This document shows positions 43,217 through 51,818 of a DNA stretch of 64,000 bases, one piece after another (within the stretch, counting starts at the first letter, position 1; each line of letters starts with the position of its first letter). This stretch comes from Pirellulales bacterium. GTDB taxonomy: Bacteria; Planctomycetota; Planctomycetia; Pirellulales; UBA1268. Location: the NCBI GenBank assembly GCA_040397545.1, contig JBBAVV010000003.1, positions 68,321 through 132,320 on the forward strand, given 5' to 3'. A program made the translations under genes and the position numbers. The notes beneath the pieces are model-generated. The model did no database searches. It had not been told where the DNA came from and saw only the letters and a list, made by a program, of their open reading frames with translations.

Positions 43217-45937
43217 ATGAGCACCGCATCGACCCGGGAAAAGCTGTTCGCTGCCTTCGCGCGCCGTCTGGGGTATGTCACCGACGGCCAGCTCGAGGTG
43301 GCCTGCCAGGCGCGGCACCGCGACCCGTCGAGGGGGTTGGCCGACATCCTCGTCGCCCAAGGGGCGATTGACGACAGGAATCGGGTCCTCATCGAGGAGG
43401 TCGTGGAGAGCCACCTCGCGCCGCATGCCGGGGACACGGAGGCATGCTTTGCGGGCATCCTCGACAAGGGTTGGGTCCCCGCGGCGCTCTTCGCCGACGG
43501 GTCCGACCTCCCTACGGCGGCCGGTGCGCCGATGGGGCCGGAGCCGCCGGTCGTTGCGTGGGAAGAAGGAAATGCCGACGCCCTCGCCGAGACGGTGACG
43601 CTCGGGAGCTACACCTCCGGCGGGAGCCGCTACGAGCTCCTCGAGCTGAAGGGGTGGGGGGGAATGGGGGAGGTGTGGCTGGCCCGTGATCGCGAGCTCA
43701 ATCGGGAAGTCCTTCTCAAGCAGGTCCTGCCGCAGCTCGCCGAAAACGCGCAGAACCGAGAGAGATTTCTTCGTGAGACGCGCACCGGCGCGATTCTCGA
43801 GCATCCGGGGATCGTGCCGGTCTACGACATCGGCCAGCATCCCGGTGGCCAGCTCTTTCAGGTGATGCGGTATTTCAGGCCTGGTTCGCTTCACAAGAAG
43901 ATCGCCGCCTACCATCTCGCCCACCCCGACGCGATCGATGAGCTGGCCTTCCGGACGCTCCTGGGGCACTTCGCTACCGCCTGCCGGGCGATCGAGTTTG
44001 TCCACACCCGCGGCATCCTCCACCTCGACATCAAGCCGCAGAACATCGTCACCGGCGAATTCGGCGAGACCCAGATCATCGACTGGGGGCTCGCGCAGAT
44101 CACCGACGCCGACATGCTCGGGAAAGTCCACGAGGAGAGCGGGAATCTCGCGAGCGGATCGCCGCGCGGCGACTCGGTGCCGCCCACATCGAGGGAAAAG
44201 CGGACCGTGACCGACGTCTTGCCGCGGGGTCTGCGGGGGACCCCCGCCTATGCCGCCCCGGAGCAGTGGCAGGGGGATCCGAAGGCGCTCGGGCACCGGA
44301 CCGACGTCTACGGCCTCGGGGCCACGCTCTTCGAGATCCTCGCCGGCAAGGCGCCTTTCAAGGTGCCCGCGCCGACGCTTCGAGAGGATGTCGAGATCGG
44401 AAACCTCCACCGGGAAGTGAAGCCGTGGGTGCCGGCGAACCTGCGGGCGATCTGCCGCAAGGCGATGGCGGTGACGCCGGGCGACCGCTACGCCACGGCG
44501 GCGGCCCTCGCCGACGACGTCGACCGCTTCCTCGCCGACGAGCCGGTGGCAGCCTGGCCCGATCCCTGGCGGGTGCGGCTGTGGCGATTCGTCAAGGGCC
44601 ACCGGACGGCCGTGGCGGCGGCCGGCGTACTCCTGGCCACGACGACGGTGGCCCTGGCGATCGGGAACGTGCTCGTGTCGCGGGAGCGCGACGTGGCCAC
44701 GCGCAACGCCGCAATGACGCGCGACGTGATCGCCGACTTCATCGAGAAGGTTGCCGACGACCAGTGGGGAAAGATCCCCGGAACGGGGACGCTCCGGCTC
44801 GACGCCGTGAAGAGCGTCGTCGACAAGTTTCCCGACTTGATCGAGCAGCAGCCCGACAATCCTGACCTGAAGTACGACGCGGCGCTGATCTACCGGCGGT
44901 GCGCGAATCTCTACCGCCTGCTCGGAAAGCTCGACGAGGCGAAGCCGCTCTACGACCAGTCGCGGGAGATCATGGAAAAGCTCGTCGCCGAGCATCCGGA
45001 CGTCGCCCTCTACGGCCTGGGATGGTGCCACAATCTTCTCGAGGAGGCGGAGATCCTCGTCCGGGAATCCGGTCCCGAGCCGGCCCTGCCGACCCTGAAT
45101 GAGGCGCTCGTGGCCGCCGAGCGGAGCGTGGCGCAGTTTCCGCAGCCCTCCTCCGGGGCACGACGAGTACTCGCCCAGGTGCAGATGGATCTCGCCGAAG
45201 TGCTTGTCAATACCGGTAGGGTCGATGAGAGCGTGAAACTTTCGGGAGAGGCGGTGAAGAATTTCGACAACGTCACGGCCCGGGATGCAGACGACGACGA
45301 GGAGACCCGCGTTGTGACGCGGCTCCTTGCCGCGTTGGCGGCGGTCGTCGCCACGAATGCCCGCTCGGAGGCCGATCGGCGGGACGAGGCGAGGGAAATG
45401 GCCGAGAAGGCCGACCGACAGACGGCGGAACTGTCAGCGCAGCACGGCGGCGATCCGAACGTCGACTACGTCCGGGCCCTGGCTCTCGATGAACGGGCCC
45501 GCGTCCTCGGGCTCGACGCCGCGACGGCGGCGGAGGGAGAGAAGCTCGGGAACGAGGCGATCGACAAGCTCCGGGCCCTCGTCGCGAGCGCTCCCGACGA
45601 GGCCAACTTCCGGCCGGCACTCGCCGACATCCTCGTCGATCGGGGTGAAAAACGCCTCGCTGCGGAGAACACCGCCGAGGCCGCCAAGCTCGCCGACGAA
45701 GCGCTCGTCGCCGTCGCCCCCCTCGACGAGCCGACCGGCGCCGCCGAGGCAAAGCGCTCCCTCGCCCGGGCCCACGCCCTCCGCGGCCGGGCCGCCACGG
45801 CCGCCGGCGACGCCGCCGCCGCCAAGACGCATCTTCAGTCGGCGAGGGAGTTCTACGAACCGGCCATGGCCGGAGCACCTGAAAACAAAAAACTCCGCGA
45901 AGAGGCCGCCGAGATCGGGCGGCTCCTCGCGGAGTGA
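43217..45937 (+). CDS. membrane Ser/Thr protein kinase with C-terminal TPR-like domain (paralogue 1)
   Basis: Hanks kinase blocks: GWGGMGEVWLARD..VLLKQV, HPGIVPVYD, HLDIKPQNIV, IIDWGLA, GTPAYAAPEQ. TM segment AVAAAGVLLATTTVALAIGNVLV, followed by a helical repeat region. Confidence 0.9.
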   Translation: MSTASTREKLFAAFARRLGYVTDGQLEVACQARHRDPSRGLADILVAQGAIDDRNRVLIEEVVESHLAPHAGDTEACFAGILDKGWVPAALFADGSDLPTAAGAPMGPEPPVVAWEEGNADALAETVTLGSYTSGGSRYELLELKGWGGMGEVWLARDRELNREVLLKQVLPQLAENAQNRERFLRETRTGAILEHPGIVPVYDIGQHPGGQLFQVMRYFRPGSLHKKIAAYHLAHPDAIDELAFRTLLGHFATACRAIEFVHTRGILHLDIKPQNIVTGEFGETQIIDWGLAQITDADMLGKVHEESGNLASGSPRGDSVPPTSREKRTVTDVLPRGLRGTPAYAAPEQWQGDPKALGHRTDVYGLGATLFEILAGKAPFKVPAPTLREDVEIGNLHREVKPWVPANLRAICRKAMAVTPGDRYATAAALADDVDRFLADEPVAAWPDPWRVRLWRFVKGHRTAVAAAGVLLATTTVALAIGNVLVSRERDVATRNAAMTRDVIADFIEKVADDQWGKIPGTGTLRLDAVKSVVDKFPDLIEQQPDNPDLKYDAALIYRRCANLYRLLGKLDEAKPLYDQSREIMEKLVAEHPDVALYGLGWCHNLLEEAEILVRESGPEPALPTLNEALVAAERSVAQFPQPSSGARRVLAQVQMDLAEVLVNTGRVDESVKLSGEAVKNFDNVTARDADDDEETRVVTRLLAALAAVVATNARSEADRRDEAREMAEKADRQTAELSAQHGGDPNVDYVRALALDERARVLGLDAATAAEGEKLGNEAIDKLRALVASAPDEANFRPALADILVDRGEKRLAAENTAEAAKLADEALVAVAPLDEPTGAAEAKRSLARAHALRGRAATAAGDAAAAKTHLQSAREFYEPAMAGAPENKKLREEAAEIGRLLAE

Positions 45938-46013
45938 AGGAATGGGCGGCTGCAGCCAAGAATTGCTCCGTATGAGACTTTGGCGTTCCCGTATGGCTCA
46001 GGAATACCAGACT

Positions 46014-46394
46014 TTACGGTGTTAGCAACGGTTTCATCGTTATCGTCATTTTTCGACTACCCCCAGGTTTAGGAAGAGAGGTGAATTCCTCTGCGTCAAG
46101 CTCAGCGACGAATTGATTTCCTTCAAGTTTCACACTTAAGAAGCTCGCTGGAGAATCATTGGAACCACTCTTCTTGATGTTCACGGGATTATTATTTTCA
46201 TCCGCGACTGAGATGAAAAATTCTCTTACGGGATTTCCATGGCAGGTGATTACGACGTCGGTCACGTCAAAAATGAGTTTGTAGATTTGTTTCTGTGGTC
46301 TTGAAGCGGTTGGACGGTGACGCGTGGAGGGTTTTCGTGGCGTTGATTTCTTTGTAGTCCCTCGCGCTCTCGCCGCCTTTTTCTTCTTCGCCAT
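46014..46394 (-). CDS. small basic-tailed protein 1 (126 aa): MAKKKK Lys/Ser/Thr/Pro-rich tail plus beta-rich domain
   Basis: AAGGAG lies 8 nt upstream of ATG 46394. A 381-nt frame stays open in DNA of about 40-45% GC, where stop codons are frequent by chance. No signal peptide and no family recognised. Confidence 0.65.
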   Translation of the reverse strand: MAKKKKAARARGTTKKSTPRKPSTRHRPTASRPQKQIYKLIFDVTDVVITCHGNPVREFFISVADENNNPVNIKKSGSNDSPASFLSVKLEGNQFVAELDAEEFTSLPKPGGSRKMTITMKPLLTP

Positions 46395-46730
46395 TGCATG
46401 ATCTCCTTGAAGGGCATCAATCGGGTCATGGCCGACGATCTGGCCGACGATCTGGCCGACGATCTGGCCGACGATCGGCGGGATCGTGCGGGCCCATGAT
46501 AGCGGGGAGTGGTTCACTCTGCACGAGGGGGATGGTCGTAGGTGCCCATCAGCCCCGCCGGATCGAACCCCCCCGCAATCAGGCCGCCAGGAGGGTTCGC
46601 CCGTGTCCTGGGAGCCGGCGTTGCAGGCCAGCGCATCCATGGATGGCAAAGCGTAGCCGGCACCCGAGTGAAGCTTTGGCCCGGAAGGCCAAAGCGAACG
46701 TCGGTCGACAGGGCACGGGCGACCCCGACC
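46378..46730 (-). repeat. conserved GC-rich leader element, copy A (upstream of small protein 1)
   Basis: Aligns by hand with 48286-48613. The 46558-46730 block matches 48441-48613 with 12 mismatches in 173 nt. The 46381-46433 block matches 48289-48341 with 2 mismatches in 53 nt. The element spans the RBS and the first 5 codons. Confidence 0.9.
46430..46477. repeat. 12-bp tandem repeat (GGCCGACGATCT)x4 inside leader copy A
   Basis: Three perfect units plus a fourth with one mismatch. Copy B (48338-48361) carries only two degenerate units. Confidence 0.9.
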
Positions 46731-46796
46731 CCCACCGGGGCCTGCAGCCCTCGGGCTTACCGACGTTTGGTGATCGAACAGCCCCCTGAGCCCGCG

Positions 46797-47633
46797 TCAG
46801 CGCAGCGCCTCCTCGGTCGGGATCGGCCGGCGGCCACGGAGCCGGAAACGGGCCAGGGCGATGAGGCCGGGGATCACGAGCAGCCAGCCCCCGCCGTTCA
46901 AGCAATCCTGGGCCGGAAGGGGAAGGTGGCTCGTGAGGGGATCGAGGAGATCATAGGCCGGCTGGAAGAGGTCGTTGACGCCCTTCCAGCGCAACACAAG
47001 GCGGCGGAGGACGGGGCCTTCGTCGCGCCCTAGCTTCTCGATCTTCTGCTGGAGGGCGGGGAGGCCATCGGGGGCGGCCGCGGCGGCAGCGGCCCGGCGA
47101 TTGGCCGCGGCAACCCGCCGGGGCACCTTCCCGTCGGCTCCCCTCTCGACACCGACGAAGAAACTGAACACCAGCGAGAGCACCGCCATCGCGAAAATAT
47201 TGAGAAACAACTGGCTCAAGAAGACGAGCATCCCGACCCGGAAGGGGATCTTCCAGAGCAGCACTTGAACGACCCCGCCGGCGCAGAGGGCGAAGAGGAC
47301 GGGGAGATAGCGGATCAGCGGCACGTAGCCGAGGACAAACCACTTCAGCCCCATCGGCTCGCGGAGCCAGGTGAGATAGCTGAAGTTGGGGGGGAAGGCG
47401 ATCCCGAGACGCGGATCCTGCATGAGCCGGGCGAAGCCGTAGCCGGAGAGGTCGTAGACGAAGAAGACGGTGAGCCAGACCGCGAACACGGTCTTCGCGG
47501 CGCCGAGGATCGTCGCCGGCCCTTCCTCCGTCCAGAAGGCGGTGGTGCGCATGAGGATGAAGATGGCGATCGGGAGCATGAGCAGCCAGAACAGGATCGG
47601 CAGCAGGCTCGAGTGTTCGATCGACTGGATCAT
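46797..47633 (-). CDS. hypothetical multi-pass membrane protein (278 aa)
   Basis: MIQSIEHSSLLPILFWLLMLPIAIFILM.. is followed by ~6 hydrophobic helices and then a soluble Arg/Ala-rich C-terminus. Codon usage is genome-typical. Confidence 0.7.
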   Translation of the reverse strand: MIQSIEHSSLLPILFWLLMLPIAIFILMRTTAFWTEEGPATILGAAKTVFAVWLTVFFVYDLSGYGFARLMQDPRLGIAFPPNFSYLTWLREPMGLKWFVLGYVPLIRYLPVLFALCAGGVVQVLLWKIPFRVGMLVFLSQLFLNIFAMAVLSLVFSFFVGVERGADGKVPRRVAAANRRAAAAAAAPDGLPALQQKIEKLGRDEGPVLRRLVLRWKGVNDLFQPAYDLLDPLTSHLPLPAQDCLNGGGWLLVIPGLIALARFRLRGRRPIPTEEALR

Positions 47634-47685
47634 GCCGCATCTTGTAGCGGGGGAGTCTGGAAGCTTCGTGGCGGTCGGTGAGGCG

Positions 47686-47858
47686 TCATTTGACGAGCCC
47701 GCTGCTCGTGTCGAGCGTGCTCATGCCGCGCAGCGCCAAGGCGACCGCGTCGGGGTTCGTCGAGAGGCGGCGGGCCTCGGTGCCGGTGATCTGACCGCGG
47801 TTGGAGAGCTCCGTCAGGTGCTGGTCGAAGAGCTGCATGCCATGGATCCGGTTTAATC
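47686..47858 (-). pseudogene. pilT: 3' remnant of a PilT/PilU-type twitching-motility ATPase gene
   Basis: The minus-strand translation ..RIHGMQLFDQHLTELSNRGQITGTEARRLSTNPDAVALALRG..* matches the conserved extreme C-terminus of PilT (..GMQT(F/M)DQ.L..L...G.I..EEA......P..L). An in-frame stop lies ~18 codons upstream, and there is no ATPase core. Confidence 0.6.
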
Positions 47859-48302
47859 GGGGATACTCGCGTTGGTTTTGTAAGTAGTTTCCTTTCTACG
47901 GAAGGGTGGAGTGGTCCGTCCCGCCAGGATCGTGATTTTTAGTTTACCCGTGCCACGCAATTCGATCGATCGCCGCGAAATCCCAGTCACTTTTATAACA
48001 AATTGACCGGGTGTGCTGTCCGAAAATGAAACCTTGTCATTGGGAATCGGGTGTGTGGCTTGTGTGTCATCATCTGTGAACACAAGCACGTTTGTGTCAC
48101 TGTAAACGGCTGGGTTGGAGAGATTGCTACCCATTACTGTAAACCAGAAGTTGTCCTTGCTGAGGGGGATGGCCTCAGGATCAGTGCTGTAGATTACGGG
48201 CGCTAGAACTGTCGGGTTGGTCTTCGGGGCCTTCTGTTTGCCGGACCCCGAAGTTGTCTTCGGGTGAGAGCGTTTGGCAACTGCTACTTTCTTCTTCGCC
48301 AT
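47853..48302 (-). CDS. small basic-tailed protein 2 (149 aa): MAKKK tail plus IPT/TIG-like beta-sandwich
   Basis: AAGGAG lies 8 nt upstream of ATG 48302. The 450-nt frame is open in ~45-48% GC DNA. PVIYSTDPEAIPLSKDNFWFTVMGSNLSNP resembles the first strands of IPT/TIG Ig-like domains. Confidence 0.65.
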   Translation of the reverse strand: MAKKKVAVAKRSHPKTTSGSGKQKAPKTNPTVLAPVIYSTDPEAIPLSKDNFWFTVMGSNLSNPAVYSDTNVLVFTDDDTQATHPIPNDKVSFSDSTPGQFVIKVTGISRRSIELRGTGKLKITILAGRTTPPFRRKETTYKTNASIPD

Positions 48303-48613
48303 TACATGATCTCCTTGAAGGGCATCGATCGGGTCATGGCCATCGATCCGGCCGACGATCGGCGGGTCGTGCGGGGCCATCATAGCGGGGAGTCGGGCAC
48401 CCGGCACGAGGGGGGCGCAAAGAAGTGTCGAACGGCGCTACCGGATCGAACTCCCCCGTAGTCAGGCCGCGAGGAGGGGTCGCCCGTGTCCTGGGAGCCG
48501 GCGTTGCAGGCCAGCGCAGCCATGGATGGCGAAGCGCCGCCGGCACCCGAGTGAAGCTTTGGCCCGGAAGGCCAAAGCGAATGTCCGGCGACAGGGCACG
48601 GGCGACCCCGACC
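48286..48613 (-). repeat. conserved GC-rich leader element, copy B (upstream of small protein 2)
   Basis: Paralogue of 46378-46730. It contains an 18-bp long-range stem (48476-48493 with 48592-48609) and a 9-bp hairpin (48556-48578). Confidence 0.9.
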
Positions 48614-48826
48614 TGCCGCTTCGGCCCGCAGCACCCGGTCCCCGACGTTGCAGGTTGCGGCGATCGGGATCGGCAGCGCCCCGGGGGAAGAGGCCGCACC
48701 GAACGGTGGATGCGGGCCATCATAAGGGGTGACGAGCGGTCCGCGCGGGGGGTAATCTTTCCGTGGCGTTGGCGGGCGGGATCCCCCCCGACGGTCGTCG
48801 ATCGATCACTTCACTGAGGTGCACCC

Positions 48827-51475
48827 ATGCCGACCGACCCGACCCGAGGCCTTCTGTGTGCGATCTTCGCAATCCACCTCAACTTCATCACCCGCAACCA
48901 ACTTGCGGCCGCGATCGCCGAGTGGATCCGGGATCCGGCGCGCGCGATCGCCGAGATCCTCGTCGCGCAGAAGGCGATCGACCCACGGACGCGGGAGATC
49001 GTCGAGGACGTCGTGGCCCGGCATCTCGAGCAGCATCACGGGGATGTGGAGCAGAGCCTCGCCACTCTCGACGCCAAGGGGCTGATCCCGCCGGAGCTCG
49101 CCTCGGTGCTCGGCGACAGCCTGACCTCCGAAGCCCGCCCACCGGCATCGGCGGGGGCCGAGGCGAGCACCCCGGTCTCGCTCGACGGCTACGCCTCCGG
49201 GGGAACGCGCTACCGGGTGTTGGGGCCGCAGGAGCGGGGGGGGATGGGGGAGGTGCTCGTCGCCCGCGATCTCGAGCTCGGCCGCAAGGTGCTTCTCAAG
49301 CAGCTCCCCGATCGCAACGCCGACGACCCGGGGCACCGGGCCTCCTTTCTCAAGGAAATCCTTGCCGGCGCGGCGCTGGAGCATCCCAACATCGCGCCGG
49401 TCTACGACATCGGGCAGTATCCGGGGGGGCGATTGTTCCAGGTGATGCGGTTGATCCCCGGCGGCACGCTCGCACGGGCGATCCGCGATCATCACGCCTC
49501 CGGCGGCGCGGTGCCGGTGGCCGGGAGGATGCTCCGCTTTCGCGAGCTCCTCGGGCACTTCGTCGATGCCTGTCAGGCGATCGAGTATGCCCACAGCCGC
49601 GGGGTGCTCCACCGCGACATCAAGCCGAACAACATCATGCTCGGGTCGTTCGGCGAGACGCAGGTGATCGACTGGGGGCTGGCCCGCATCGCCGGGCACG
49701 ATCTCTCCGCCGGGAAAGGATCACCGGAAGAGCTCATCTCGCCCGCCGACATCGGGGAGGATTCGCAGCCGACGAAGGAGGGGCAGTTCAAGGGGACGCC
49801 GGCCTATGCGAGCCCCGAGCAGGCGGATGGAAAGCAAGACCTGATCGATGCCCGCAGCGATGTCTACGGCCTCGGGGCGACGCTCTATTGCCTCCTCACC
49901 GGCGAGGCGCCGTTCCATGTGCGGTCGCCCCTGATCCTCGACGACGTCAAGAATGGGAGGTTTCCCCGACCGCGGCTGATGCGCGCCGACGTTCCGCCGG
50001 CGCTGGAGTCGATTTGCCTCAAGGCGATGGCCAAGGCCCAGAAGGATCGGTACCAATCGCCGCGCGACCTGGCGACGGATGTCGAGCGCTGGCTGGCCGA
50101 CGAGCCGGTCCTCGCCCATCCCGATCCCTTCTCCGTTCGGCTGCGGCGCTGGGGGCTGCGGCACCGCACCGCCGTCGCCGCGGCCGCGGCGCTCCTCCTC
50201 ACGAGCGTCGTCGGCCTCGGCATCGGCTATGCGGCGGTCAAGGAGCAGCGCGACGTGGCGGAGAAGAGTACCGATCTGACACTCACCGCCATCGAGGACA
50301 TCGTCATCGAGATCGGAGATGATTCGTGGGTCCAGGATCCTGAATCGCTCCCGCGACGACGGCAGGCAGTGGAACGTGCCATCGAGATGTATGAGGACGT
50401 CTTGCAGTCAGACTCGAGGAATAGCCGCGCCACACAGGGGCTCAATAACGCCCGACAACGCAAGGGGTTCCTGGAGAGACTCAGCGGGGATGATTCCCTC
50501 GCGATCGAGAGCTTCAAGAAATCGATCGAGGGCTTGGAGCAGCAATTGGAATCGAGTCTGAAAAATCCCATCGACTTCCGGGACATCATCGCTACCCGTA
50601 GTGACATGGCGATGGCATTGCTCTTTTCCGAGGGTTCGGCAGCGGCGGAAAGTTTTCAGCGGCAGACGTGCGAAAGGGCCGCAGCCGTTTTGAAAAATGA
50701 ACCGGAATCGCAGTTGGCGAAGGAGATGAATGCCTGTGCTGAACGAGCGCTTGCCAGCATCCTCGAAGCGGCTGGAAAGACCGAAGACGCCGTGGCCTTG
50801 ATGGTGCGGAGCGCCGATACCTATTCGGAGCTCGCAGCAGATGACGAAGGACTTCATCAGCAGGCCTTCCGGGCCTGCACGTTGCGGGCGGAGTCGGCCC
50901 GTTGCTATCGACGGCTCGGCCGACTCGACGAGGCTCGGAAAGCCGCGAAGATGGCAAGGAACCTCAATGAGGGATTGATGGCTTTTGGTGTTGATTTCGT
51001 TGACTTGCGGCAGGCCAATGCCCTGACACTTCGCGAGCTGGCGATGACGGTCGATGAGCCTGCCCGAGCCGAAGCAGACGAAATGCTCCGCGATTCATTG
51101 GGGATCTATGACCAGCTGATGAAGCTGAATAGGAAGATCTGGCGATATCAACGCGATTTCTCCGAGACGTACGTTGATCGTGGTCGGATGCGACTCCAAA
51201 ATGCCGACGTCGAGGGCGCCGAGCGCGATGTCGATGCCATCCTGAAAGAGTGGCAAGCGACGGATTGGCCTCCTGCGGCACGGGCCCAGACCTCGGCGCG
51301 GTTGTTTGCCTTGAGGGGCCTGATTGCCGAACAGCGGGGGGATGAACCGCGGGCGCGCGAACTGTTGAAGTCGGCACTCGAACACTGCGTTGAATCGCGT
51401 CGCTTCGGGTTCGGTGTGATCGCGGATGTCGAAGCCGAGGTCGGCCAGCATCTTGAACGGCTCGGATCGCCGTAA
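48827..51475 (+). CDS. membrane Ser/Thr protein kinase with C-terminal helical-repeat domain (paralogue 2)
   Basis: Kinase blocks: ERGGMGEVLVARD..VLLKQL, HPNIAPVYD, HRDIKPNNIML, VIDWGLA, GTPAYASPEQ. TM segment AVAAAAALLLTSVVGLGIGYAAV. The N-terminal ~70 aa are similar to kinase 1. Confidence 0.9.
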   Translation: MPTDPTRGLLCAIFAIHLNFITRNQLAAAIAEWIRDPARAIAEILVAQKAIDPRTREIVEDVVARHLEQHHGDVEQSLATLDAKGLIPPELASVLGDSLTSEARPPASAGAEASTPVSLDGYASGGTRYRVLGPQERGGMGEVLVARDLELGRKVLLKQLPDRNADDPGHRASFLKEILAGAALEHPNIAPVYDIGQYPGGRLFQVMRLIPGGTLARAIRDHHASGGAVPVAGRMLRFRELLGHFVDACQAIEYAHSRGVLHRDIKPNNIMLGSFGETQVIDWGLARIAGHDLSAGKGSPEELISPADIGEDSQPTKEGQFKGTPAYASPEQADGKQDLIDARSDVYGLGATLYCLLTGEAPFHVRSPLILDDVKNGRFPRPRLMRADVPPALESICLKAMAKAQKDRYQSPRDLATDVERWLADEPVLAHPDPFSVRLRRWGLRHRTAVAAAAALLLTSVVGLGIGYAAVKEQRDVAEKSTDLTLTAIEDIVIEIGDDSWVQDPESLPRRRQAVERAIEMYEDVLQSDSRNSRATQGLNNARQRKGFLERLSGDDSLAIESFKKSIEGLEQQLESSLKNPIDFRDIIATRSDMAMALLFSEGSAAAESFQRQTCERAAAVLKNEPESQLAKEMNACAERALASILEAAGKTEDAVALMVRSADTYSELAADDEGLHQQAFRACTLRAESARCYRRLGRLDEARKAAKMARNLNEGLMAFGVDFVDLRQANALTLRELAMTVDEPARAEADEMLRDSLGIYDQLMKLNRKIWRYQRDFSETYVDRGRMRLQNADVEGAERDVDAILKEWQATDWPPAARAQTSARLFALRGLIAEQRGDEPRARELLKSALEHCVESRRFGFGVIADVEAEVGQHLERLGSP

Positions 51476-51641: not shown

Positions 51642-51818
51642 CTATTTGCCGATGACCTTCCGTTTGCCGCCTCCGATGGGAACTTGCTGTGGGGAGTCGA
51701 CGTCCTCGCGTGGCCCCCTCGGCTTGCGGGCTACCTTCTTCACGGCCTTCTTGGTGACCTTCTTCGTCACCTTCTTCGCCGCGGCGGGCTTCTTCTTCGC
51801 GGCCTTCTTCTTCGCCAT
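51642..51818 (-). CDS. small Lys/Ala-rich histone-H1/AlgP-like basic protein (58 aa)
   Basis: MAKKKAAKKKPAAAKKVTKKVTKKAVKKVARKPRG.. with AGGAG 10 nt upstream of the ATG. Low-complexity KK(A/V)(T/A)KK repeats resemble bacterial H1-like proteins. Confidence 0.55.
   Translation of the reverse strand: MAKKKAAKKKPAAAKKVTKKVTKKAVKKVARKPRGPREDVDSPQQVPIGGGKRKVIGK

Follow-up and report, generated by a model that had tools for sequence, protein, structure and literature searches.

Locus organization and the two leader copies

Within the window (the whole stretch of 64 kb that was analyzed), two copies of an intergenic control region, leader A and leader B, were found in front of two short genes, ORF-A and ORF-B (Table 1). 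There are only two leader copies in the window, and each precedes one of its only two low-GC islands. Both genes and both leaders lie on the minus strand, which corrects the orientation in the preliminary description. In this orientation, BLASTN aligned the leaders with 242 identities over 280 positions (86%, with five gap positions) and 52 over a further 54 (96%), bearing out the near-identical pair described earlier; find_repeats listed this pair too, as D1/D2. A recount of the alignment gave the same 12 mismatches in the distal ~173 nt and two in the proximal block, and the length difference of 25 nt is made up, as had been proposed, of two extra 12-bp units and one 1-nt indel. Identity stops past codon 5 (ATG GCG AAG AAG AAA, MAKKK), again as described; at the other end, weaker homology extends ~50 nt beyond the upstream limit first noted, to about 46782 in copy A and 48652 in copy B. 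The homology covers nearly the whole intergenic region, from the stop codon of the upstream gene to codon 5, and the upstream limit of leader B is also where homology to the conspecific L041 ends.

Leader A is composed of an upstream junction motif, a self-complementary block (the Y-module), a variable spacer, promoter-like boxes, a 5' UTR containing a 12-bp VNTR, and a Shine-Dalgarno (SD) sequence. The copy number of the 12-bp repeat differs among lineages, with about one to two in leader B and most relatives, three in L008, and four in L007. Leader B is closer to the leaders of three relatives (L016, L019, and L039) than to leader A.

Table 1. Positions of genes and sequence features at the two-leader locus
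Feature	Position	Strand	Remarks
ORF-A, cassette type A, 126 aa	46014..46394	-	GC 0.47, GC3 0.46; SD AAGGAG at 46403-46408
Leader A	46395..46782	-	Full intergenic control region, from mem278 stop codon to ORF-A start
12-bp tandem repeat, 5' UTR of leader A	46429..46476	-	4.0 perfect copies (TRF)
Promoter-like core, leader A	46494..46531	-	Kept in all lineages, including outgroups
CCCGCTATCATGG, leader A	46494-46506	-	-10-like TATCAT at 46496-46501
Box 1 CCCCCTCGTGCAGAG, leader A	46517-46531	-	Promoter function putative
Y-module, copy A	46591..46731	-	Outer stem 46593-46610 with 46709-46726; covariance-model match 150 bits
mem278, conserved 278-aa membrane-protein gene	46797..47633	-	Slot anchor; cassette slot directly downstream
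PilT-like ATPase gene, 3' remnant (last ~55 codons)	47686..47853	-	Homology from exactly the ORF-B stop codon
ORF-B, cassette type B, 149 aa	47853..48302	-	GC 0.51, GC3 0.57; Ig-like beta-sandwich
Leader B	48303..48652	-	Paralogous copy of the leader A control region
Promoter-like core, leader B	48377..48415	-	Kept in all lineages, including outgroups
CCCGCTATGATGG, leader B	48377-48389	-	-10-like TATGAT at 48379-48384
Box 1, leader B	48398-48415	-	Promoter function putative
Y-module, copy B	48474..48614	-	Outer stem 48476-48493 with 48592-48609; covariance-model match 171 bits
Third TATGATGG box, upstream of leader B	48717..48729	-	Part of an older, more diverged leader
Histone-H1-like gene, 58 aa, Lys/Ala-rich (MAKKKAAKKKPAAAKK...)	51642..51818	-	SD, start, and upstream region cassette-leader-like

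Promoter-like core of the leaders

A leader core of ~110 nt is kept in every lineage, comprising the box CCCCTCGTnnCGGG, the box TATGATGG, the UTR, AGGAG, and ATGGCGAAGAAGAA; the outgroup leaders consist of this core only and carry no Y-module. Each leader copy in the window possesses the promoter-like box pair, a 5' UTR of ~80-100 nt with the 12-bp VNTR, a strong SD sequence, and the codons MAKKK. According to their conservation, the two boxes would function as a promoter. A simple sigma-70 scan did not call a promoter site, because the -35 region is non-canonical. The promoter-like word pointed out before, CCCNNTATGATGG, has exactly three sites in 64 kb with one mismatch allowed (0.59 expected), all of them where they had been placed, and the TATGATGG box is likewise confined to three sites in the window (leaders A and B and the older leader). 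In L041, this older leader with the third box leads into an SD sequence and a truncated mini-ORF, 'MAKGVGLP*', located just before mem278.

Cassette proteins encoded by ORF-A and ORF-B

The two ORFs had been considered unrelated, which is wrong. They encode remote homologues (hhalign of A against B, 88% probability, E = 3e-6) with shared termini and the same architecture, a disordered Lys/Arg-rich N-terminal tail of ~35 aa followed by an all-beta domain. All cassette types have the MAKK start and the C-terminal strand in common, the latter with a conserved G-x-G-K/R-L-x-I-T-I, and are joined by transitive BLAST links. AF2 models of both proteins, of moderate confidence (pLDDT 71), show the disordered basic tail and the all-beta domain; the ORF-B model contains nine strands, and every one of its top Foldseek matches in the PDB is to an Ig domain (E = 2e-4, TM about 0.5 relative to target). 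ORF-A and ORF-B are hyper-divergent members of one lineage-restricted family.

The cassette proteins resemble IPT/TIG-type and other bacterial Ig-like domains in the beta-sandwich recognized by Foldseek, and the cassette profile touches Ig and fn3 repeats of large proteins. The pattern 'P-V-I-x-G-T-x-P ... F-x-V-x-G-S-N-L', seen by eye, is one that we take to be IPT/TIG-like. Unlike the known Ig-like families, the cassette proteins have a single, cytoplasmic-looking domain with a basic tail, and neither ORF matched a Pfam or NCBIfam family at threshold; no signal peptide and no PADLOC or PHROG match was found for the cassette proteins. To our knowledge, no described family combines a single Ig-like domain with a basic tail. 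The N-terminal tail resembles the neighboring histone-H1-like, Lys/Ala-rich gene product, and this gene may be the source of both the shared leader and the tail.

The pN/pS of the cassettes ranges from 0.4 to 0.9, while their pS of 0.31-0.56 exceeds that of mem278 (0.13-0.17), a synonymous divergence 2-4 times deeper than in the flanks. GC3 is 0.46 in ORF-A and 0.57 in ORF-B versus 0.89 in the neighboring gene. By these sequence properties, the cassettes are real genes that look like old and foreign alleles.

A hypervariable gene slot

In a narrow clade of freshwater (lake) Planctomycetaceae, the cassette slot is flanked by mem278 on one side and by a convergent Ser/Thr kinase gene on the other. 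The order of mem278, leader, small ORF, and convergent kinase was found in more than 30 contigs and MAGs, with slot flanks of 86-98% nucleotide identity among relatives. The slot itself is either empty or contains one of at least eight cassette types (A, A', B, B'', C, D, E, or F), and the window is 98% identical to L041 outside 46784-45946. In position, flanks, and allele divergence, the slot agrees with a replacement-type hypervariable locus, and its alleles are older than and compositionally distinct from the background, forming the low-GC islands mentioned above.

Replacement-type flexible islands and hypervariable allelic loci include O-antigen islands, flagellin or pilin glycosylation islands, and pilin or flagellin alleles with conserved ends. 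As in these, the slot occupies one chromosomal position between conserved genes, 98%-identical conspecifics carry mutually very divergent alleles, the alleles deviate in composition and coalesce deeper than the flanks, and a hypervariable middle is framed by a conserved 5' end and by conserved extreme N- and C-termini. It differs from them in its tiny size (one gene of ~130-150 aa plus leader), in an unannotated protein family that lacks both a signal peptide and a known surface role, and in the presence of two tandem units in one lineage.

Taken together, the leaders are probably paralogous control regions of a lineage-specific hypervariable gene slot, with copy B having arisen by local tandem duplication. 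As one unit, the leader together with its cassette would be exchanged between the conserved genes on either side; leader and first codons would stay alike because expression depends on them, and the rest of the cassette protein would diverge or be replaced. No recombinase domains were found in the neighbor genes of the window and its relatives.

Origin of the second copy

The PilT-like gene is intact in relatives (363 aa); in the window, the stop codon of ORF-B abuts pilT codon 309, a junction that can be read from the sequence as the joint of a tandem duplication. The conspecific L041 (98% identity over >10 kb) does not have the segment 48652-47654. The duplicated segment is also present in L012-L015, and among these the independent contig L013 shows the same two-copy arrangement and breaks inside the Y-module at both ends.

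The second unit in the lineage of the window would exist because a segment consisting of the pilT 3' end, mem278, leader, and cassette B was duplicated in tandem, fusing the ORF-B stop codon to pilT codon 309. The upstream pilT-mem278 copy would then have been lost, leaving a downstream slot that now carries cassette A; this order of events is inferred. The left junction of copy B requires a second event and admits no unique reconstruction.

The arrangement resembles segmental tandem duplications in which a gene is copied along with its promoter and 5' UTR, as the paralogous segments are collinear over the whole intergenic region and the gene, a novel joint is kept, and the segment is polymorphic in presence and absence within the species. 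It differs in that identity between the copies is no more than 86% and each has a different cassette allele. The leader identity of only 86% therefore indicates either an old duplication or the import of copy B from a related lineage, and together with the different cassettes it points to allele replacement or import after duplication.

The earlier suggestion of a promoter cassette copied by recombination thus gains support from the paralogous whole control regions, the kept joint, and the within-species presence or absence seen in L041. It had also been proposed that the direct repeats could mediate deletion between them, which was not seen: the one conspecific haplotype without copy B has its junctions outside the repeat pair.

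Structure, conservation, and distribution of the Y-module

The 18-bp outer stem, the hairpin GCTTTGGCC/GGCCAAAGC, and the GCCGGC stem that had been predicted are all present in the sequence, the outer stem enclosing the GCTTTGGCC hairpin and a branched GCCGGC arm. The minimum free energy (MFE) of the 146-nt Y region is -89 kcal/mol in the sense and -95 kcal/mol in the antisense direction (z = -6.8 and -7.6, respectively, versus 200 dinucleotide shuffles). The Y-module is the most conserved block of the leader (0.92-0.985 versus 0.35-0.58 for the spacer), and its loops are near-invariant as well as its stems. Its divergence of ~4% compares with 13-17% at neutral sites of the neighboring gene, and paired columns show a 2.3-fold depletion of substitutions (p = 0.04-0.06). 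Among 11-13 distinct sequences, which at 93-97% identity are too alike to decide on covariation, none of the 48 pairs changed on both sides; 39 are invariant, eight show broken cells only, and one shows a wobble.

The module follows closely on the mem278 stop codon and precedes the promoter-like boxes kept in all lineages. It is missing from leaders of intact orthologues in the ingroup (L007/L008, L001-L011, and L025/L026) and in the outgroups (L042-L046 and L022), and each of the three Y-less ingroup lineages (L008, L001, and L025 types) has a different junction. Ancestral flank, also found in Y-less leaders, supplies the 5' arm of the outer stem (GGGGTCGCC...), and an inverted copy of this arm forms the 3' end of the insert; the inner termini, CGTGCCCTG and CAGGNCACG, read from the alignment as 9-bp inverted repeats. 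No clean direct target-site duplication was found around the insert.

Searches for further copies covered the 64-kb window, 257 kb of related loci, a metagenome, and a viral collection, with no complete genome of the clade among them. The window contains no copy beyond the two, the covariance model found no further sites in the related loci, the viral collection gave no match, and eight of the 11 metagenome matches are at this locus, the other three covering the hairpin only. The idea of a repeat-family element is therefore rejected, since the Y-module was found only at this locus in the metagenome, covariance-model, and viral searches.

Possible roles of the Y-module

According to these comparisons, the Y-module appears to lie outside the minimal expression unit, as an optional, strongly self-complementary add-on of 135 nt that has been deleted repeatedly. 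Tentatively, it could be a cis-acting element (terminator, insulator, 3'-end-stabilizing hairpin, or operator) where the mem278 transcript borders on the cassette promoter. Against such a role, no U-tract follows the stem, the near-invariance of both loops and stems exceeds the needs of a plain terminator, and copy B has no gene on the same strand upstream of the module. A protein-binding or other cis role may be exerted at the DNA level.

The preliminary description had named a riboswitch-like or protein-binding 5' UTR among its options. For this, transcription would have to start upstream of the Y-module, from the third TATGATGG box in copy B and by read-through from mem278 in copy A, so that the module and the downstream leader form a long structured 5' UTR whose junction controls translation or stability of the cassette; a 3'-UTR-derived or independent sRNA is a variant of the same idea. 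With known leader RNAs, the Y-module shares its position in front of a gene and a long, GC-rich three-way junction of outstanding thermodynamic stability. Its fold is very stable and well defined (in the antisense direction the MFE structure equals the centroid), no leader block is more conserved, paired columns show the mild depletion of substitutions, and copy B has a promoter-like box upstream of it. However, sense and antisense fold equally well, as palindromic DNA should, the core common to all lineages is downstream of the module, and the module is gone from three ingroup lineages and all outgroups though their genes are intact. The pairs show no compensatory change, albeit among highly similar sequences, and the proximal leader has no conserved structure. 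Rfam returned nothing at gathering score in the 64-kb window, and at E <= 10 the sole match in 45900-48900 was an unrelated snoRNA-like one at 47100, none falling on the Y-module. An RNA function is thus unsupported, and we regard the structured UTR as unlikely.

A bolder proposal is similarly doubtful, namely that the leader is a dedicated expression site for an undescribed hypervariable Ig-like family with histone-like tails, kept under balancing or diversifying selection (e.g., by phage, predator, or self/non-self recognition), with the Y-module as a new class of structured element (three-way-junction RNA or folded DNA site) that regulates the cassettes or aids their exchange.

The module might also be a functionless relic, no longer mobile, of an inserted palindrome that was MITE-like or a fold-back/template-switch inverted copy of the left flank; it would have been inserted a single time, in the subclade ancestor, and would now be undergoing loss via hairpin-mediated deletion. 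The outgroup leaders, which have neither the module nor the surrounding extension, are consistent with this, as are the pre-existing 5' arm with its inverted copy, the 9-bp inverted repeats, and recurrent loss at short direct repeats such as CCCT. REP/BIME, ERIC, and Correia-type MITEs are likewise imperfect palindromes (115-135 nt for the Y-module) in intergenic positions just past a stop codon, present or absent among close relatives, with a plausible transcript-boundary or mRNA-stabilizing role. Unlike these, the Y-module is single-locus, has no TIR with direct TSD, and uses ancestral flank as one stem arm; a dispersed repeat, MITE, or REP family is rejected on the first two grounds for the sequences searched. 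A relic would not stay this conserved: conservation of the module is 3-4 times that of neutral sites in the neighboring gene and far above that of the adjacent spacer. A functionless origin is thus improbable.

Least credible is a dedicated site-specific exchange system, integron-like or shufflon-like, for the low-GC cassettes, with the leader as its attachment or expression site and the Y-module as a folded recombination site: many unrelated-looking cassettes do occupy one site behind one conserved leader, leader variants and cassette types are reshuffled (one SD-proximal variant precedes types A, B, E, and F), and the module is an imperfect palindrome within the attC size range, but no integrase, recombinase, or transposase was found in the surrounding ~30 kb or on the relatives' contigs, equally diverse cassettes stand behind Y-less leaders (types A, A', and C), and between conspecific genomes the island is bounded by the stop codons of its two neighbor genes, the pattern of ordinary homologous replacement. 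An integron cassette with attC site was rejected on the lack of a nearby recombinase and on the module itself, which is 5' of the promoter rather than at cassette 3' ends and, unlike attC sites, is conserved in sequence.

Implications

What appeared to be a riboswitch before two unrelated genes is better read as a compact hypervariable gene slot in uncultured, abundant lake Planctomycetes, probably with one conserved control region in front of at least eight ancient, foreign-like alleles of an unannotated family with Ig-like domain and basic tail, and with two tandem units in one lineage. As the Y-module is strongly constrained, highly structured, dispensable, and confined to a single locus, it offers a clean case in which, with transcript data, RNA-level and DNA-level function could be told apart. 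Owing to their short length, the cassettes can be tracked as a strain marker in metagenomic time series. Because hypervariable loci like the slot usually signal an interface with phages, grazers, or kin, it is a concrete candidate for one in a phylum that has been little studied.

Repeat pair and organization of the locus

Leader A and leader B, the control regions ahead of ORF-A and ORF-B, lie about 1.9 kb apart and form a real pair of direct repeats, which was recovered by BLASTN (242 of 280 positions, 86%, and 52 of 54, 96%, identical) as well as in the repeat families D1 and D2. A recount upheld the mismatches first reported (proximal block, 2; distal ~173 nt, 12). Two additional 12-bp units plus a 1-nt indel indeed account for the 25 nt by which the copies differ in length, identity stops past ATG GCG AAG AAG AAA, and the proposed stems are present in the window (inverted repeats I4, I7, and I12). 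The word TATGATGG occurs three times in 64 kb, all at this locus, versus 0.6 expected. On strand and extent, the preliminary description was corrected: the leaders and the genes behind them are all read on the minus strand, and weaker homology runs ~50 nt further upstream of the core match, to ~46782 and ~48652, so that it covers nearly the whole intergenic region. The observation is confirmed, and its interpretation is partly supported. Only two copies were found in the window by BLASTN and nhmmer, and on copy number, here and in the wider scans described below, the repeat-family reading fails. Deletion between the direct repeats found no counterpart, as no such recombinant was present among the fetched contigs. 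The ORFs behind the two copies are the sole low-GC islands in 64 kb (GC 0.43-0.50 vs 0.686).

Features of the two-leader locus (window positions)
Feature	Position	Strand	Context
Convergent Ser/Thr kinase	43217-45937	+	after ORF-A
ORF-A	46394-46014	-	after leader A
12-bp tandem repeat (VNTR)	46429-46476		5' UTR of leader A
mem278 (conserved 278-aa membrane protein)	47633-46797	-	after 50-aa ORF
50-aa ORF (3' remnant of PilT-like ATPase)	47686-47853	-	after ORF-B
ORF-B	48302-47853	-	after leader B
kin882	48827-51475	+	divergent; upstream of leader B
58-aa histone-H1-like gene	51642-51818	-	upstream region to ~51950

On contigs encoding relatives of ORF-A or ORF-B, the order of mem278, intergenic leader, small ORF, and convergent kinase recurs. 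A genome scan anchored on mem278 returned only eight species-level MAGs, all with 88-93% amino acid identity, and the flanking genes are 86-98% identical in nucleotides across all loci. The Ser/Thr kinases on either side of the locus are paralogues (37% amino acid identity), both ending in C-terminal TPR repeats, and a third kinase of 534-551 aa is located upstream of pilT in relatives; the small cassette proteins might be kinase-linked. Four MAGs carrying this locus (L025, L026, L028, and L030) were deposited as 'Candidatus Kuenenia stuttgartiensis', a label that looks wrong, because ~69% GC, a lake origin, and PSCyt/PSD1, DUF1501, and sulfatase neighbours are consistent with Planctomycetaceae-like heterotrophs.

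Cassette proteins form one hypervariable family

The two ORFs had been described as unrelated, which is incorrect: their profiles match each other with 88% probability (E = 3e-6). In a near-isogenic background, the slot between mem278 and the kinase holds an ORF-A-like, A', B, B'', C, D, E, or F protein, or is empty. Every cassette type begins with MAKK(K), has a low GC content (0.47-0.57), and shares the C-terminal end G/A-x-G/A-K/R-L-x-I-T-I. AF2 models of A and B (each with pLDDT 71) consist of a ~35-aa disordered basic tail followed by an all-beta domain, and Foldseek matches are Ig domains. Several results, namely the profile-profile match between A and B, transitive BLAST links among the types, and these models, tie the cassettes into one family. 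The cassettes are real genes (pN/pS 0.4-0.9). Across identical genome pairs, their synonymous divergence (0.31-0.56) is higher than that of mem278 (0.13-0.17) by a factor of 2-4, and their GC3 is 0.46/0.57 vs 0.89 in the neighbouring gene.

The family is narrowly distributed. Among 5.8 billion clusters, only four are homologous to ORF-A and seven to ORF-B, all from Planctomycetia MAGs or lake metagenomes, and exhaustively searching 1.84 billion representatives with an HMM turned up about four full-length relatives. PADLOC gave no defence-system match for the cassettes or mem278. A phage origin was rejected, as viral contigs did not match the leader or the self-complementary module within it and the cassette proteins had no PHROG match. 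A PDB sequence match to the FHA protein Rv0020c was weak (E = 1.4) and, with FHA motifs absent, was treated as chance.

In some gene calls, the cassette ORF begins at an ATGATGG box (region 48380-48407 of the window), giving, for instance, the 155-aa P0004 or a 184-aa ORF (47853-48407). This N-terminal extension is in frame in some lineages only and is probably an annotation artefact, since a 1-nt indel puts it out of frame in others. At the type-C loci (L025, 7073-7800; L026, 3301-4100), the low-GC stretch runs several hundred bases past the 126-aa cassette and may contain a second low-GC gene or represent a longer island.

Leader anatomy

Thirteen distinct leaders bearing the Y-module, a ~135-nt self-complementary three-way-junction segment with an 18-bp outer stem, were aligned with several leaders lacking it. 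From 5' to 3', the leader opens with a junction motif (GCTGCAGGCCCCAGCGGCAGGTCGGGGTCGCC) and the Y-module; next come a semi-conserved stretch and a hypervariable spacer (pairwise identity averaging 0.35-0.58), then box1 (CCCCTCGTGCAGGG) and CCCCGCTATGATGG. The UTR that follows carries GCCGATCGTCGGCC-type palindromes together with the 12-bp VNTR, and AAGGAG, 8 nt, and ATGGCGAAGAAGAA complete the leader. In the outgroups (L042/L043, with mem278 82% identical in nucleotides, and the L022/L044/L045 group), the leader is only ~110 nt long and is reduced to box1, TATGATGG, a ~50-nt UTR, the Shine-Dalgarno (SD) site, and the start codon. This universally conserved core, in which box spacing is constant, is a putative promoter with its 5' UTR. 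A consensus scan of the leader called no canonical sigma-70 promoter and no intrinsic terminator, and the proximal leader showed no convincing conserved RNA structure (weak consensus of -22 kcal/mol, essentially no covariation).

The VNTR GGCCAGATCGTC was found by TRF as 4.0 perfect copies in leader A; L007 also has four, L008 three, and the other leaders one or two. Its unit length is a multiple of 3, each unit contains a small GCCGATCGTCGGC palindrome, and the repeat could modulate expression. In L019 (4484-4700), as well as in L020, L021, and L035, the junction motif just upstream of the Y-module (GGCCCCAGCGGCAGGTCGGGGTCGC...) forms three tandem ~77-nt repeats; this too points to a region in which slippage and rearrangement occur readily. 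The Lys/Ala-rich histone-H1-like gene (MAKKKAAKKKPAAAKKVTKK...) resembles the cassette leader in its SD site, start codon, and upstream region (CCCCCGTGCG..., CACGATCGCCGTCGGCGATCGG); its homologues adjoin the locus in L002, L023, L024, and L029, and the leader and basic N-tail that the cassettes share may have evolved from this gene.

The Y-module

Folding energies of the 146-nt Y region are -89 kcal/mol in the sense and -95 kcal/mol in the antisense direction, with z = -6.8 and -7.6, respectively, versus dinucleotide shuffles. The module sits between the stop codon of mem278 and the putative cassette promoter core; cassettes with the module ahead of them are A (window), A' (L033), B, D, E, and F. 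The module is missing from all outgroups and from three further groups, each with a different junction: GCCCGTG joined to CCCTCATGG at a CCCT direct repeat (L007/L008), GGTCGCC joined to CCTCCTGG (L001-L011), and GGTCGGGG joined to GCTGACTGG (L025/L026). The 5' arm of the 18-bp stem is also found in leaders without the module. Scanning metagenomes with the hairpin core yielded 11 matches, eight at this locus and three hairpin-only; 257 kb searched with a covariance model contained no additional copy, and viral scans were empty.

The Y-module is the most conserved part of the leader (0.92-0.985). It is 96-97% identical where mem278 or the kinase is 86-90% in the same pairs, its divergence is ~3-4 times below that of neutral sites, and substitutions are 2.3-fold depleted in its paired columns (p = 0.04-0.06). 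Of 48 predicted pairs, 39 are invariant, eight depart by broken cells only, and one keeps a wobble; none is compensatory, a count for which the sequences are too similar to be decisive and shuffle controls uninformative. Taken together, distribution, conservation, and copy number define a dispensable, constrained, single-locus, and strongly self-complementary module.

The riboswitch-like reading proposed earlier fails on family match (Rfam gave nothing relevant at gathering score or E <= 10), on retention across orthologues, and on position relative to the conserved core. A tRNA or tmRNA was suggested by the T-loop-like word GGTTCGATCC, but ARAGORN returned nothing. A coding role was rejected, as none of the six frames gave a convincing signal: pN/pS is 0.49 in the best frame, which lacks a conserved start and is frameshifted in L040, and an antisense 'MAKRRR' ORF meets a stop at codon 3 in most lineages.

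Proposed replacement and duplication of the leader-cassette unit

Over >10 kb, the conspecific contig L041 matches the window at 98% identity. The exception is the interval from the mem278 stop codon (46784) to that of the kinase (45946), in which L041 has cassette D behind another leader variant (85% identical). Leader and cassette therefore behave as a replaceable mini-island. The earlier suggestion of a promoter cassette copied by recombination holds. Integron-like exchange was rejected, as a recombinase is absent near the locus and the Y-module is wrongly placed for attC. The abrupt end of identity after codon 5 would mean that expression signals and N-terminal start are under constraint, with the rest of the protein diversified or replaced.

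The 50-aa ORF behind ORF-B is what is left of a PilT-like (T2SSE) ATPase gene, namely its 3' end (TIGR01420 positions 313-342). In nucleotides it is 86-90% identical to the intact 363-aa counterparts in L016 and L019; pilT is also intact (363 aa) in L030. Homology to the intact gene starts at 47853, which is both the last base of the ORF-B stop codon and pilT codon 309. The order in L016 and L019 is pilT, mem278, leader, and cassette B; a head-to-tail duplication from pilT codon 309 to the cassette-B stop would yield exactly this joint, the first pilT-mem278 copy having since gone. No 5' pilT sequence was found in the 64-kb window, so the ATPase encoded ahead of mem278 in relatives has apparently been lost from this lineage. 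The upstream limit of leader B, at 48652, abuts an older leader that has diverged further and bears the third TATGATGG box; in L041, this older leader leads into an SD site and an 8-codon truncated mini-ORF (MAKGVGLP, then stop; L041 2168-2228) just upstream of mem278.

The arrangement of the window is common to L012-L015, and the 1-kb segment is absent from L041 and L031. With just 86% identity between leaders A and B, and with leader B nearer to the leaders of other lineages, either the duplication is old or copy B was imported; the order of the duplication events is one that we infer. In L002 (255-800), a 57-aa kinase fragment (98% identical to kin882) lies in the stretch upstream of mem278; from the L041 and L002 rearrangements, this stretch is a rearrangement hotspot.

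A full-text search found no literature specific to this locus. The best explanation for the two leaders is a paralogous control-region pair of a hypervariable replacement locus, the architecture being a small version of known hypervariable replacement loci, joined here with a segmental duplication. The Y-module is a constrained palindromic module with no known counterpart, and the cassettes represent an unannotated, hypervariable protein family with one conserved leader, a finding of moderate novelty.
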